Of a stretch of DNA of 64,000 bases, positions 367 through 7,366 are shown one piece after another. A program made the translations under genes and the position numbers. The notes below the pieces were generated by a model that worked only from the letters and a program-made list of their open reading frames with translations, did no database searches and was not told where the DNA came from. Numbering within the stretch: the stretch's first letter is position 1; each line of letters begins with the position of its first letter. Source of the DNA: a virus; IMG/VR virus record IMGVR_UViG_3300045988_161192, positions 1 through 64,000 of that record; one strand, 5' to 3'.

Positions 367-1266
367 GTGCCTATTATGGCAGTAGTAAATTACGCAGAAG
401 CTTATGAAAGAGCATTAGCTCAAGCTTACCCAAACGTTCTAAACTTTGGTGAATTATACAATACACCAAACAACAGAATTTACACATTTTTAAATGCTAA
501 AACTATTCACATTCCTTCTATCTCAGTTAGTGGTAGAACAAATGTAAATAGAGATAGCATCGATGGAGTATTCCAAAGAAACGTAGACAATGACTACGAA
601 GACAAAACTATGCAATTCTACAGAGAATGGTCAACATCTATTGACCCAGCAGACGTAGATGAAACAAACATGGTTTTAACAATTCAAAATGCAACTAAGG
701 TTTTCAATGAAACACAAAAATTCCCAGAGAAAGATGCTTACCTAGTTAGTAAAGTATATGCTGACTGGACAGCACAAGGTGGTGTAGTTAACACTACAGC
801 ATTAGATGTTGATACAGTTCTTTCAGTATTTGATAAAATGATGGAAGACATGGATGAAGCATTAGTTCCTTTCAATGGAAGAATTTGCTATGTAACACCA
901 GCTGTTAAAACATTATTGAAAAATGCTTCACAAATTGGACTTTCTAAAGATGTTACAAAACAAGGAAACATCAATAGAATAGTTAACAGATTAGATGAAG
1001 TTAAGTTAGTAACTGTTCCATCTGTTTTAATGAAAACAGCTTACACATTCTCTAAAGGATTTGCTGAAGCAGACGGAGCTGGACAAATCAATATGTTCTT
1101 AGTTCATCCATCAGCAATCTTAACTCCTTCAAAATATTCTTTCGTTGGAGTTCAAGCACCAGCTGCTGGTACAAAAGGTGACTACATCTATTATGAAAAA
1201 GAATACTCTGATGTATTTATTTTAAATAATAGAACAGCTGCTATAGCTTTCAACGTTTCACCCTAG
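367..1266 (+). CDS. major capsid protein (HK97-fold type, inferred)
   Basis: 299 aa; strong RBS AAGGAGGTG 8 nt upstream; first gene of the structural block ahead of connector, tail and TMP genes; no catalytic motif, so the call rests on position and composition. Confidence 0.55.
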   Translation: MPIMAVVNYAEAYERALAQAYPNVLNFGELYNTPNNRIYTFLNAKTIHIPSISVSGRTNVNRDSIDGVFQRNVDNDYEDKTMQFYREWSTSIDPADVDETNMVLTIQNATKVFNETQKFPEKDAYLVSKVYADWTAQGGVVNTTALDVDTVLSVFDKMMEDMDEALVPFNGRICYVTPAVKTLLKNASQIGLSKDVTKQGNINRIVNRLDEVKLVTVPSVLMKTAYTFSKGFAEADGAGQINMFLVHPSAILTPSKYSFVGVQAPAAGTKGDYIYYEKEYSDVFILNNRTAAIAFNVSP

Positions 1267-1654
1267 TCCAGCTCCTACTAAGGAGCTAACTGTTGATACT
1301 AGCATTTCAGCTAGTGAAGACTTATTTGGAAAGACAATCGAAGATTTACAAGAAAACGTTGAAATTGGAACAGACAGTATAACTGGTACATTAAAATATG
1401 TCGATGACTATACTGGATTTAGTTCTGACCCAGAAATGCAATCTGGAAATTACTTAGTATTACATTGTACTACAAATGATAGTGACCCAATTACAGTTGA
1501 AGTAGTTGGTGGAATTTCTGGTCCAAGACAATTGGATGCTGATGGTATAATCGTACTAAGAATTGCTGATAAAGACACACAAACTATTCAAGTAGTTAGT
1601 GGAAGTCTAACAAAGAATTATTCTTTAACAGAATTAGTTCTTGAGACTGAATAA
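1262..1654 (+). CDS. C-terminal extension of the capsid protein reached by a putative +1 frameshift (Ig-like decoration domain?)
   Basis: the +1 frame is open from 1247 to 1654 with no ATG/GTG/TTG start in frame until the Met codon at 1436 (which itself has no RBS); the capsid ORF ends CCC_UAG at 1261-1266, a Pro-codon-plus-stop +1 slippage context. Confidence 0.4.
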   Translation, partial: PSPAPTKELTVDTSISASEDLFGKTIEDLQENVEIGTDSITGTLKYVDDYTGFSSDPEMQSGNYLVLHCTTNDSDPITVEVVGGISGPRQLDADGIIVLRIADKDTQTIQVVSGSLTKNYSLTELVLETE

Positions 1655-3765: not shown

Positions 3766-4098
3766 ATGGACAATGAAGAAGTTTTAGTAATTGACGGAGA
3801 AGAATTCCGTTTCAAACTTCCAAGTAGAGAAGTTGTTAGATTAGAAAAATTATATGGAAAAAATATTTTTGAAATATTCGAAAGTTTATCATTCGGAACC
3901 ATAGCTGACATTTTGGAAGCTGCTTTAGTTGAACCTAAAGGAATGGACAAATTCGACATGATGGACAAACTATTGACAAAATACACTATTATTGAATTAG
4001 GCCAAGATTTTCTACAAAAGGTTGCAGTAAAATCTGGACTATTAAGAGTTAAAGACTTGGAAAACAATGATGGAGAAGCTGAAGCAAAAAACGTCTAA
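3766..4098 (+). CDS. tail assembly chaperone (gpG-like)
   Basis: 110 aa acidic protein directly before the tape measure gene; RBS AAGGAG. Confidence 0.5.
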   Translation: MDNEEVLVIDGEEFRFKLPSREVVRLEKLYGKNIFEIFESLSFGTIADILEAALVEPKGMDKFDMMDKLLTKYTIIELGQDFLQKVAVKSGLLRVKDLENNDGEAEAKNV

Positions 4099-4439
4099 AG
4101 GAGTATGTTAGTGACCCTTTGGCTGGTTTCCATTTGGTTCACACAATTTATATCGAGTTAACTAAACTAGGATGTGAGCTCAGAGAATTATATGATTACT
4201 CTGTCAAGGAGTTACTATTCATGCTCAAGTATAAAAGAGAAGGTTTAGCTGAAACGACTTGGAAACAGGGGCTAATCGTTAGAGCTGCATATTCTAGAAA
4301 TTCTTTCCCGAAAAATCCCCGAGAAATATTTTTAGATATGTATGAAGAAACTTACAAAAAGAAGAAAGTCCCAATTCCTGACTGGTTGAGAGAAGACTAT
4401 GAAAAGAGGCTAAACGAAAGAGTTCGAAAATCTGATTAG
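4083..4439 (+). CDS. tail assembly chaperone frameshift extension (gpT-like), expressed as a G-T fusion
   Basis: -1 frame relative to 3766..4098, open from 4083 to 4439; its only independent start is a weak TTG at 4119; conserved G/GT arrangement before the TMP. Confidence 0.45.
   Translation, partial: SKKRLKEYVSDPLAGFHLVHTIYIELTKLGCELRELYDYSVKELLFMLKYKREGLAETTWKQGLIVRAAYSRNSFPKNPREIFLDMYEETYKKKKVPIPDWLREDYEKRLNERVRKSD
4086..4092 (+). other. -1 programmed frameshift slippery heptamer A_AAA_AAC
   Basis: canonical X_XXY_YYZ heptamer in the zero frame of the G-like ORF, 6 nt before its stop; the -1 frame is open from 4083. Confidence 0.5.
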
Positions 4440-4453
4440 AAAGGAGTGAGATT

Positions 4454-7366
4454 ATGGACGAAGAATTCAAAGTCAGATTTGTCGTTGACATGGGCGACAC
4501 TGAAAAACGTGTAAAGCGTTTGAAAAATGACTTTGTCTCAATAGAAAATAACGAAATCCACTTCAAGTCTAATATTGGAGACATCGATAAAAATGCAAAT
4601 TCAGTTTTTAAGAATTTGCGTTCAATGATGGAAGGCGTCAACAAAAATCCAATTTGGTCCAATGCCAAAAAGCAAGAGTATTTGAAATTCTTTAAAGGTA
4701 TGGAACAAGTTGCCAATAGAGCATTCCACAGCATGGAAGCAAAATATTCTCGATTTGCTCAAGAGATTTCAACTTGGGACGCTCAAAAGAATGCTTTACA
4801 AGTTGAACTTAATCTAAAAGATGGTCAAGCTGAAGAAATCAGACATCAGATAGACGAGGAAATGTCAAAACCAAGCCGTGTTGGTACATACGAAGATTTG
4901 GTCAAAATGCAAGCAGAATATAACAAACTAACCAATATGAAACTTCCTTACGAGAAAGCAGCTCAAGCTGCTAAGGAACGTGGAGATATGCCTGACTACG
5001 AGTCTTGGATAAGAGATTTGAAAAAGATTGACGAATACCAAAAGAAACTGATGGATGACATGGAGCATTTTCAGATTGGAAAATCTATTGGTGGTCCAGA
5101 CTATGATAAAATCGCTAGCCTTCGAGAAAAATATGATGAAATCCAAAAAGAGGCTGAAGAACTTGACAAAGAAATAACTAAAATGGGAAATAACCCGGCA
5201 ATGGAAAAGAAACGTCAAGAACTAGAAGCAATTAGAGTTGAATACGGTAGACTGATGGTTGACTTACAAGGAAATCCTTTGGATGACCAATTTAGGTCAC
5301 AATCACTACAATCTTTGAACCCACAAGTAGAGAATTTGAATAATGGACTAGATAGGTCTGGTCAAAAAATCAAGTGGAACACAAAGTTGACTGAAGCTTG
5401 GGGTAAAATGATGGGTCGTTTGAAGTCAAGGGTTATGTTTAGTATTGTTTCAATGCTTAACCCAATTCGACTAATTCGTCAAGCCTGGAGTGGCTTTTTA
5501 GAGCAAAACACTAAAACTAAAAATACTTTGAAAATGATAGGTCTAAACTTACAAAAAGTAATAGCTCCAGTTCTTCAGAAGATTGCTAATTTCATTTTCA
5601 AAATGGCTCAGTATGCAAACGTTTTAACCAAAGCTTGGTTCAATGTAGACCTATTTGACAAATCTGTTTTAAGTGCTGAGAAAACAGAAAAGAAAATCAA
5701 GAAACTTAATCAATTAACAGCCGGCTTTGATGAACTAAATGTTTTTAAAGAAGACGAAGATGACAGTGACAGTGGCAATGAAACACTGGACACAATGGAA
5801 TTACCTAAAGTTGATACCTCTGGACTTGAGAAATGGGCAACAGAAGGATTTGGAAAGAAAGTGGGAGACATCCTGAAATGGTCATTAGAACATCCACTTG
5901 AAACTGCTGGAATTCTTCTTGGAGCTAAGTTCTTGGGTGGACTTCTTGGAAAAGGAGTCGGAGCATTAGTCAAGAAAGGTATTTCGAAACTATTTGGAGG
6001 TAGCGCAGCTGCAGAAGGTGCTGCCGCTGGTGGAGGACTTCTTGGAAAAATCTTTGGAAAAACACTATATACTGGTATGAACGGAAAAGCTGTTACAGTT
6101 GGAAAATTACTTGGTGGTATAGCATTAACGGCTGGTGGAACAGCATTAGCTATTTCACAAGCAGCAGATGCTGGAAAGAACTGGCAAGATTTGACAACTG
6201 GAGCTAAACTTGGAAAAACCGCATTAGTTGGACTTGGTTCTGCAGCAGCTGGAGTTGGAGCTGTAATGCTTGGAGCATCTGGACCAGTTGGTTGGGCCGT
6301 TGCTGGTGGTGTGGCTCTTGCCTCATTTGCAGTAGGTATGTGGCAAGTCCAAGATGGAATAGACTCGGTCAAGAAAGAAACTGAAAAATTAACAGAAGCT
6401 AATCAGAATGCCGAAGTTGCTAATCAGAATTACATGATTTCAGTCCAGAATGCAGCTTCAACATTATCAGCTTTGGAACAAGCCGAACAAGCAACTGGTT
6501 TATCTGGAGCAGCATTAGACGAACAAGTTAGAAACGGTACATTGAATGTTGAAAACATGACATCTGCTCAGTTAGCTGTCTATAGTGCTTATTTACAAAA
6601 CGAAGAAGCTGTTAAGAAATTGAAAGAAGCAACTGAAGCCAAAAAAGAAGCTGACCATCAAGCAGTTCTTCAGTCATTGAAAGTTGAAGCAGCAAATGCT
6701 ATTGAGTCTAAGTCTTATGATACATTAAGAGAAAAAGTTGTGAAAGCTTGGGAAGAAGGTTCAATTAGTGCTCAAGAAGCGGGAGACATTCTTTCGAGAA
6801 CTTTAGCACATGCTGATGATGAAACACAAAGAACTTTTGGTCAGAGCATCCCTAAAGAAATGCAAGATGCTTTCAATCCCGACAAATATGAGTCTGGTTG
6901 GAGAAAATTCGGTACAAACTTTAAAAATGCAATGGAAGGAATTGGCAATTGGTTCAAAAAGAAATGGGATGGAATTAAGAGTTGGTGGAATGGTTTATGG
7001 GGTAAAAATCAAACTCCAGAACCTAATGCTCCATCTGGTCCAAACGGTGAAAGCTGGTCTGGAGCATCCTATGCAGTTGGTACAAATTATGTACCGAATG
7101 ACCAATTAGCTTTAGTTCACAAAGGAGAAGCAATTATTCCAGCGAAATATAACAACGATAAGACTTTTGGAAGCCACGATGCTTATTTAAGAAGTACATT
7201 AGATGCTATGAATTCTGAAATCGCTAGCCTTAGAAACCTAATCAACCAAGGTATTCCAGTGAGAGGAGAATTCGTACAAAGAGGTTCAGACCTTTATGCT
7301 ACAGTGGAGAAAGCTAAAAGCAAAAAAGGAAATCAACCTTTAAGCAATCCAGCTTATGCTAGATAG
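4454..7366 (+). CDS. tail tape measure protein
   Basis: 970 aa; coiled-coil N-terminal half and a Gly/Ala-rich hydrophobic central segment; follows the G/T chaperones. Confidence 0.8.
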   Translation: MDEEFKVRFVVDMGDTEKRVKRLKNDFVSIENNEIHFKSNIGDIDKNANSVFKNLRSMMEGVNKNPIWSNAKKQEYLKFFKGMEQVANRAFHSMEAKYSRFAQEISTWDAQKNALQVELNLKDGQAEEIRHQIDEEMSKPSRVGTYEDLVKMQAEYNKLTNMKLPYEKAAQAAKERGDMPDYESWIRDLKKIDEYQKKLMDDMEHFQIGKSIGGPDYDKIASLREKYDEIQKEAEELDKEITKMGNNPAMEKKRQELEAIRVEYGRLMVDLQGNPLDDQFRSQSLQSLNPQVENLNNGLDRSGQKIKWNTKLTEAWGKMMGRLKSRVMFSIVSMLNPIRLIRQAWSGFLEQNTKTKNTLKMIGLNLQKVIAPVLQKIANFIFKMAQYANVLTKAWFNVDLFDKSVLSAEKTEKKIKKLNQLTAGFDELNVFKEDEDDSDSGNETLDTMELPKVDTSGLEKWATEGFGKKVGDILKWSLEHPLETAGILLGAKFLGGLLGKGVGALVKKGISKLFGGSAAAEGAAAGGGLLGKIFGKTLYTGMNGKAVTVGKLLGGIALTAGGTALAISQAADAGKNWQDLTTGAKLGKTALVGLGSAAAGVGAVMLGASGPVGWAVAGGVALASFAVGMWQVQDGIDSVKKETEKLTEANQNAEVANQNYMISVQNAASTLSALEQAEQATGLSGAALDEQVRNGTLNVENMTSAQLAVYSAYLQNEEAVKKLKEATEAKKEADHQAVLQSLKVEAANAIESKSYDTLREKVVKAWEEGSISAQEAGDILSRTLAHADDETQRTFGQSIPKEMQDAFNPDKYESGWRKFGTNFKNAMEGIGNWFKKKWDGIKSWWNGLWGKNQTPEPNAPSGPNGESWSGASYAVGTNYVPNDQLALVHKGEAIIPAKYNNDKTFGSHDAYLRSTLDAMNSEIASLRNLINQGIPVRGEFVQRGSDLYATVEKAKSKKGNQPLSNPAYAR

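Follow-up and report, generated by a model that had tools for sequence, protein, structure and literature searches.

The first gene in the stretch of viral DNA analyzed here (64,000 nucleotides [nt], positions 1 to 64,000 of IMG/VR record IMGVR_UViG_3300045988_161192; hereafter the window) encodes a major capsid protein, ends in the codons CCC-UAG, and is followed in the +1 frame by 129 codons that lack a start codon of their own. We conclude that this junction is very probably a "shifty stop", that is, a site of programmed +1 ribosomal frameshifting at which a fraction of the ribosomes would leave the capsid frame and add an immunoglobulin (Ig)-like β-sandwich domain to the C terminus of the capsid protein.

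The capsid gene junction and its conservation

The capsid open reading frame (ORF) closes with AAC GTT TCA CCC TAG (CCC at 1261–1263, TAG at 1264–1266). In the +1 frame (positions equal to 2 modulo 3), a TAG at 1244–1246 is followed by an open stretch that runs from 1247, 17 nt ahead of the capsid stop, to a TAA at 1652–1654. Neither ATG nor GTG nor TTG occurs in this frame between 1247 and 1435; the first such codon is the ATG at 1436, and no Shine-Dalgarno (SD) sequence was found in the 20 nt upstream of it (GATTTAGTTCTGACCCAGAA). The extension ORF proper occupies 1265–1654 (129 codons plus TAA; this and all other features of the capsid locus lie on the + strand). A first-pass annotation of the window had read the junction in the same way, with a capsid end of GTT TCA CCC TAG, a +1 frame open from 1247 to 1654, a first Met at 1436 without a ribosome-binding site (RBS), and an extension of about 130 amino acids (aa), and each of these readings stood up to re-examination. 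Its capsid length of 299 aa has to be corrected to 296 aa: the gene (376–1266, 296 codons plus TAG) most likely starts at ATG 376, which gives a fused form of 425 aa. This ATG is preceded at a distance of 6 nt by the RBS AAGGAGGTG (361–369, read in the sequence), and the GTG at 367 that the ORF list gives as the start falls within that RBS.

An open +1 frame of this kind is unlikely to have arisen by chance. At the base composition of the window, stop codons have a frequency of 0.080 per codon, and the probability of a stop-free run is 1.4e-5 over 135 codons and 5e-3 over the 63 that precede the Met. The guanine-plus-cytosine (GC) content by codon position in 1265–1435 (0.47/0.42/0.19) also matches that of the capsid gene (0.45/0.36/0.21). 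Within the 17-nt overlap, re-pairing of a tRNA in the +1 frame is possible at CCC_U only, and this shift site (CCC_UAG_U, 1261–1267) contains a rare codon: CCC accounts for 38 of the 569 Pro codons in the window (6.7%; 2.05 per 1000 codons), occurs in the capsid gene only once, as its last codon, and stands directly before the stop in no other gene of the window. Between the two ORFs, the + strand showed no terminator-like site, and promoter-like matches in the region were no commoner than in shuffled sequence. Read-through of the UAG was considered and rejected, because the 0 frame meets a second stop 4 codons past the TAG and the domain is out of its reach.

The same junction recurs throughout a clade of ten genomes, made up of the window and loci L004, L005, L171, L164, L165, and L167–L170 (DNA from IMG/VR, ENA, and Logan assemblies), whose extensions are 70–95% identical to that of the window. 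In all ten, the capsid gene ends (T/A)C(A/G) CCC TA(G/A) T and the domain follows in +1, the stop being UAA in three members and CCC_TAR_T being invariant, and no member has a stop codon inside the extension. The capsid protein itself belongs to the phrog_422 family of major head proteins (phiC2/CDMH1/IEBH type), which it matches with an E value of 1.8e-93 over residues 1–295 of 296, and it is 54% identical to the capsid proteins of the C. difficile phages phiC2 and CDMH1. We retrieved more than 100 capsid relatives (25–89% identity), most of which end ...AFN-x-x-stop, have no domain, and carry the RBS of the next gene directly behind; the extension is therefore an accessory module. None of these relatives outside the clade has CCC-stop at the end of its capsid gene. 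The presence of CCC_UAR_U in 10 of 10 independent genomes, together with its absence from capsid-gene ends outside the clade, supports the programmed +1 frameshift that the first-pass annotation had put forward.

The extension domain

The 129-residue translation of 1265–1651 begins with a Pro/Ala/Thr-rich linker, SPAPTKE (1265–1285), that varies in length among relatives and is followed by a domain of ~120 residues (1286–1651). In Pfam, no family matched the extension at E ≤ 0.1, including the Ig-like families Big_2, I-set, and fn3. Its only family match is phrog_31690, of unknown function (E value 5.5e-30, from residue 28 onward); 321 homologues were found in a metagenomic protein collection, and the matches in BFVD are uncharacterized virome proteins. 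AlphaFold2, supplied with a 57-sequence alignment, predicts a nine-strand β-sandwich that starts at residue 8 and leaves residues 1–7 unstructured, with a predicted local distance difference test (pLDDT) score of 94.1 and a predicted template modeling (pTM) score of 0.88. The predicted structure has two sheets and can be superposed on domains of the Ig, FN3, filamin, or PKD type; at the level of the modeled fold, the extension is an Ig-like β-sandwich, in agreement with the Ig-like C-terminal domain foreseen in the first-pass annotation.

The Met encoded at 1436–1438 is residue 58 of the extension and is not the start of the domain. It is flanked by the invariant motifs YTGFS and QSGNY, and in L169 it is replaced by Glu. 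In the alignments, conservation sets in at about residue 8–10 (..LTVD..S..DLFGK..), and D19, L20, G22, K23, Y49, T50, G51, F52, and S53, all upstream of Met58, are invariant among 16 aligned sequences. In comparisons with eight relatives, the ratio of nonsynonymous to synonymous substitution (dN/dS) is 0.06–0.36 over the 48 codons upstream of Met58, equal to that of the downstream part, at a synonymous divergence (pS) that reaches 0.5–0.7, values that are incompatible with a pseudogene. The region upstream of Met-1436 is coding, is conserved, and belongs to the folded domain, and a 72-aa product initiated at 1436 would be only a fragment of that domain.

The proposed frameshift, its alternatives, and its precedents

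Because CCC_U is a motif with experimental precedent in three systems (discussed below), we propose that the shift takes place in the P site by slippage from CCC to CCU. Most ribosomes would end translation at UAG 1264, with the 296-aa capsid protein as their product; in a fraction of ribosomes, while the A site awaits the release factor, the peptidyl-tRNA-Pro would move from the rare CCC (1261–1263) by +1 to CCU (1262–1264). Decoding would then restart at AGU 1265 and end at UAA 1652, yielding a 425-aa isoform (...AFNVSP-SPAPTKELTVD...) composed of the capsid protein, the 7-residue linker, and the 120-residue β-sandwich. Long and short isoforms would assemble together, and a fixed minority of subunits would expose the domain at the head exterior, where it would probably provide weak adhesion to host-surface or environmental glycans. 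We infer that slippage occurs at CCC-UAG and that the long isoform is built into capsids; adhesion to glycans is suggested by analogy and by the occurrence of the domain in large repeat proteins.

A 7-base-pair (bp) hairpin, AGCUCCU-ACUA-AGGAGCU (1270–1287; −12.2 kcal/mol, z −2.6), starts 6 nt past CCC and may slow the ribosome and so raise slippage. A hairpin with a loop of 4–10 nt is predicted at the equivalent position in 9 of 9 sequences folded, and one of its pairs changes from U-A to C-G; it is a possible stimulator and is treated here as a candidate only. The fold of 1255–1340 contains a second, weak hairpin (UACUAGC-AUUUCA-GCUAGUG, 1297–1316) that is absent from the clade consensus fold (RNAalifold). 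RNAalifold also places a long-range helix around the first hairpin, with poor support, and the clade folds revealed no conserved pseudoknot partner downstream of CCC. The AAGGAG in the 3′ arm of the hairpin (1280–1285) is followed at 7 nt by a TTG in the −1 frame that opens a 29-codon ORF (1293–1382), probably a product of chance, since L165 and L167 lack the AAGGAG.

An Rfam scan of the window returned tRNA only: the phage encodes a tRNA-Pro(UGG) at 52590–52665 and a tRNA-Met(CAU) at 52766–52842. The tRNA-Pro was considered as a natural quadruplet decoder and rejected, given its normal 7-nt anticodon loop (UUUGGGA) with G37. It could be a tRNA able to read CCC at the shift site, or its role may be no more than to decode the abundant CCA codons; an exact-pattern scan for a tRNA-Pro alongside the +1 site picked out one 6-kilobase (kb) contig only.

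Several points weigh against programmed frameshifting at this locus, beginning with the fact that it is known from metagenomic sequence alone. The base 3′ of the stop is U in every clade member, and in E. coli a U after the stop favors efficient termination, not slippage. In 7 of the 10 clade members, a TTG, GTG, or ATG stands in the +1 frame within the 3′ end of the capsid gene, and gene callers start 133- to 141-aa ORFs at these codons in relatives; no SD is evident upstream of the start-like codons in those seven, for which independent initiation is a formal possibility, and the window and L004 have no such codons. The hairpin, finally, has an invariant core (GCUCC/GGAGC), and four of its seven pairs never vary. 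The shuffle control for covariation was not significant (67/500), z is above −1 in three relatives, and L167 retains only 4–6 pairs. The two arms also code for Ala-Pro and Glu-Leu, and their conservation could thus reflect protein constraint.

A rival reading is that the domain is a free protein, made by independent initiation and then bound to the capsid as a decoration protein, the proposed starts being ATG 1436 (72 aa) or a non-canonical codon near 1286–1304 served by the AAGGAG at 1280–1285. A near-identical sequence has indeed been annotated as a 72-aa ORF (P0079), and relatives as ORFs of 133–141 aa; free-standing versions of the domain exist elsewhere, both as 128- to 130-aa proteins and as 221-aa proteins with an N-terminal domain, an ATG, and an RBS; and AAGGAG is a strong SD-like sequence. 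A start at 1436, however, would cost at least 45 conserved residues, amounting to about four predicted strands, and would have to rely on an ATG that has no SD and whose Met is Glu in L169, which disfavors the separate protein that the first-pass annotation had named as the outcome that would refute it. Upstream of that Met the frame offers no ATG, GTG, or TTG (1247–1435). The codons behind AAGGAG are CTA ACT GTT GAT ACT AGC ATT, among which the only rare start is the ATT at 1304, 18 nt away, and the motif itself is not conserved, reading ACGGAG in L165 and CGAGAG in L167. The version in the window also lacks a capsid-binding N-terminal domain of the kind present in the 221-aa free forms. We regard independent initiation as very unlikely.

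A highly improbable origin of the fusion is a route other than +1 slippage of the ribosome, be it transcriptional slippage, a −2 shift, or termination with re-initiation at the UAG, even though −2 and +1 shifts reach one and the same frame and sequence by itself does not separate the routes. Transcriptional slippage could restore the frame, though only via an altered mRNA; known cases need runs of ~6–9 A or T, and nothing at the junction is longer than CCC. For a −2 shift, tRNA-Pro would have to re-pair with ACC or CAC, which it cannot do, and for re-initiation a start codon would have to lie close to the stop, which is not the case in the window or in L004. Conservation, moreover, falls precisely on the two overlapping Pro codons of CCC_U. 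The slimmest chance of all attaches to the +1 ORF being a nonfunctional remnant, left by an indel in a former fusion, or an artifact of assembly or sequencing. In-frame capsid fusions do exist (L046 and L013, described below), so a 1-nt indel could yield the observed layout; yet ten assemblies from different samples and studies share both the frame relation and CCC_TAR_T, which excludes the frame-fusing indel that the first-pass annotation had allowed for, and dN/dS is 0.06–0.36 at a pS that reaches 0.5–0.7, with zero stop codons accumulated across the members.

Programmed +1 frameshifting at CCC-UAG has close parallels, of which SPP1 gp17.1* (CCC.UAA) and lactococcal 936 MTP-TpeX (CCC.UAG) are better than those first cited, namely prfB and the cps gene of Listeria phage PSA. 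In prfB, which encodes release factor 2, the shift takes place at CUU_UGA with an internal SD 3 nt upstream; the shift codon here is CCC, there is no SD-like element in the 24 nt upstream of the site (GCTATAGCTTTCAACGTTTCACCC), and this analogy falls. The analogy to PSA stands, with the correction that the PSA site adjoining a stop is that of tsh, not cps. The tsh genes of Listeria phages PSA, A118, and A500 shift at CCC_UGA (PMC5009743) and have their shifty-stop logic in common with the site described here. In PSA cps, a +1 shift takes place at ACA_CCC_UCC beside a pseudoknot (Zimmer et al. 2003, via PMC5009743). As a major capsid protein that gains a C-terminal extension by +1 frameshifting, cps is the precedent for our case, and it differs in having a sense codon after CCC and a downstream pseudoknot, where our locus has a stop and a small predicted hairpin of 6–7 bp; the site in the window is not of the cps type. 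PSA Cps is, in addition, a ~390-aa HK97-type protein encoded beside a Clp protease gene and belongs to a family other than phrog_422, and the PSA extensions are shorter, at ~45 and 25 residues. In the PSA sequence, ACA CCC is found at both the cps and the tsh sites, and it is found in 6 of the 10 clade members.

At the level of sequence, every feature of the CCC-stop class of shifty stops (SPP1 gp17.1*, PSA tsh, and 936 MTP-TpeX) is present: CCC_U with an adjacent stop, a rare CCC, a +1 ORF without functional start or RBS, and an extension under selection as an autonomous domain. In SPP1, gp17.1* is made at CCCUAA by a shift from a rare CCC to CCU and carries an FN3 extension, with a 3:1 ratio (Auzat et al. 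2008, via PMC6316719). Bacillus phage SPP1 shares with the window a rare CCC that overlaps CCU and, at the end of the gene for a major virion protein, directly adjoins the stop, an extension of ~90–130 residues that has no start of its own and forms an Ig-like β-sandwich (FN3 in SPP1), a low-GC Gram-positive host (presumed for the window), and a similar rarity of CCC (8% of the Pro codons of SPP1 and 6.7% of those of the window). The SPP1 carrier is a tail tube protein and not a capsid protein, its FN3 domain is recognizable by sequence whereas the extension here has no Pfam family, its stop is UAA instead of UAG, and its two products have been seen as protein (3:1), whereas those of the window are predicted from sequence. 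The lactococcal 936-group phage PhiC0139 has the identical hexamer, CCC.UAG, at the +1 shifty stop of MTP-TpeX, confirmed by Western blot (PMC4759559). There, too, a major virion protein is joined to a downstream ORF and the extension is an accessory element, which part of the group lacks. PhiC0139 differs in its carrier, a tail tube protein, and in its extension, a carbohydrate-binding protein of 22.6 kDa that decorates the tail in spirals. Capsid proteins with −1 extensions are known from T3 and from Lactobacillus phage A2 (review PMC5009743).

The domain in other phages and other recoding candidates

An IMG/VR profile search, pooled with other fetched loci, gave 78 non-redundant loci that carry the domain, attached in frame in 10, in −1 in 55, and in +1 in 10, the last being the clade of the window itself. 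In the −1 loci (drawn from L084–L163, L186, L191, and others), the domain stands behind an ORF of at least 100 aa, and most often no start precedes it; where there is one, it is a TTG, GTG, or ATG that falls within the upstream gene or at its end. Their carriers include HK97-type capsid proteins (PF05065), protease-capsid fusions (Peptidase_S78, phrog_3270), phrog_544 capsid proteins, phrog_2645 tail tube proteins, and phrog_49 head-decoration proteins. Most −1 loci end in A_AAC_CCT_TAA (..N-P-stop) or a close variant (for example L110, 1942–1965; L109, 1984–2007; and L128, 1984–2007), with C_CCN directly before the stop in 35; nine have T_TTT-stop, and others T_TTA_AAA or G_GGG_GGT. The tetramers C_CC.U and U_UU.U are prone to frameshifting in E. 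coli (PMC4066793). Two further loci, L190 and L194, with capsid proteins homologous to that of the window, end ACA AAC CCT TAA (~2886–2940) and are followed by sequence that does not match the domain, possibly other frameshifted modules.

The in-frame group of 10 includes L161, where the carrier is a capsid-sized ORF, and also takes in the 221-aa free proteins with their extra N-terminal domain, own ATG, and RBS. Outside the count of 78, because its match is too weak, L046 (3377–3793) carries a distant copy of the domain (26% identical) in frame on a capsid homologue that is 57% identical to that of the window. L013 (3386–3643), with a capsid protein 81% identical to that of the window, has a different in-frame extension in the same C-terminal position; this extension is ~85 aa long and looks Ig-like. 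A profile search of 1.84 billion representatives put the domain family at 1225 clusters at 50% identity, including C-terminal in-frame copies on Phage_capsid (HK97-type) and Baseplate_J proteins as well as tandem copies, 4–10 per protein, in proteins of 1,500–2,700 aa (P0121–P0127). Listeria-Bacteroides repeats accompany the tandem copies in one of these. Large repeat proteins, which we regard as bacterial cell-surface proteins, thus seem to share the domain with phages.

Ig-like domains on phage structural proteins have been reviewed as in-frame, −1, or +1 additions (PMC5009743, refs B148–B155), attached in one mode or another apparently indifferently. Here the same pattern is seen within a single domain family, on capsid, tail tube, decoration, and baseplate proteins. 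The reviewed references reportedly include Fraser et al. 2006. A tentative idea, to which we give little credence as yet, is that the domain and a proline-stop slip site form a portable cassette. Recombination would drop the domain behind unrelated capsid, protease-capsid, tail tube, and head-decoration genes, an indel at the junction that is not a multiple of three would turn C_CCU_UAA (−1) into CCC_UAA/G (+1), and the phage's own tRNA-Pro(UGG) might set the rate of slippage. That many non-homologous carriers end in A_AAC_CCU_UAA would follow if slip site and domain move together.

As a case of recoding, the locus is a solid and unsurprising further example of a type already known in Gram-positive phages, and it leaves the current understanding of the mechanism unchanged. 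It adds a capsid protein to the CCC-stop +1 class, which has been shown experimentally so far mainly on tail proteins. Public gene calls split the locus into a capsid gene and a spurious ORF of 72 or 133–141 aa, where the true second product is probably the 425-aa capsid isoform, and dozens of related contigs need a like correction. The analysis also defines a widespread, so far unnamed Ig-like display domain that is attached to virion proteins in frame, in −1, or in +1, and that offers a natural series for studying the efficiency of slip sites and the ligands of gut and rumen phages.

The window is a phage genome of 35% GC content with essentially all genes on the + strand. A megablast of 300–1700 against 50,697 phage records gave zero matches, which points to a phage without a close cultured relative. 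The nearest genome matches are contigs of 75–79 kb whose bins disagree (Clostridia, Bacilli, Lachnospiraceae, Tenericutes, and Gastranaerophilales); they are probably whole phage genomes that were mis-binned, and the host can at most be placed, as likely, among gut or rumen Bacillota. Upstream of the capsid gene, by ~235 nt and inside a 375-nt non-coding stretch, lies a near-consensus sigma-70-like promoter (112–140; TTTACA, 17 nt, TATAAT; 11/12 matches), in a region where promoter-like matches as a whole stay at the level of shuffled sequence.

Two other places in the window bear on recoding. At the end of a tail gene (3766–4098, phrog_2115), the canonical −1 slippery heptamer A_AAA_AAC occurs at 4086–4092, and the −1 frame past it continues into an ORF at 4119–4439 (..KKRLKEYVSDPLAGFHLV..) upstream of the tape measure gene (4454–7366). 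This is a classic tail-chaperone frameshift site of the gpG/gpGT type, which makes it probable that −1 and +1 recoding both occur within the structural module of this phage. Further downstream, a 744-aa ORF (59235–61469) in the +1 frame overlaps a 359-aa gene (58277–59356) by 122 nt; its sole upstream start is a TTG without SD, and no in-frame ATG, GTG, or TTG occurs for 51 codons past the upstream stop (TAC TGA). This ORF may have another true start, or it may mark a second recoding event.

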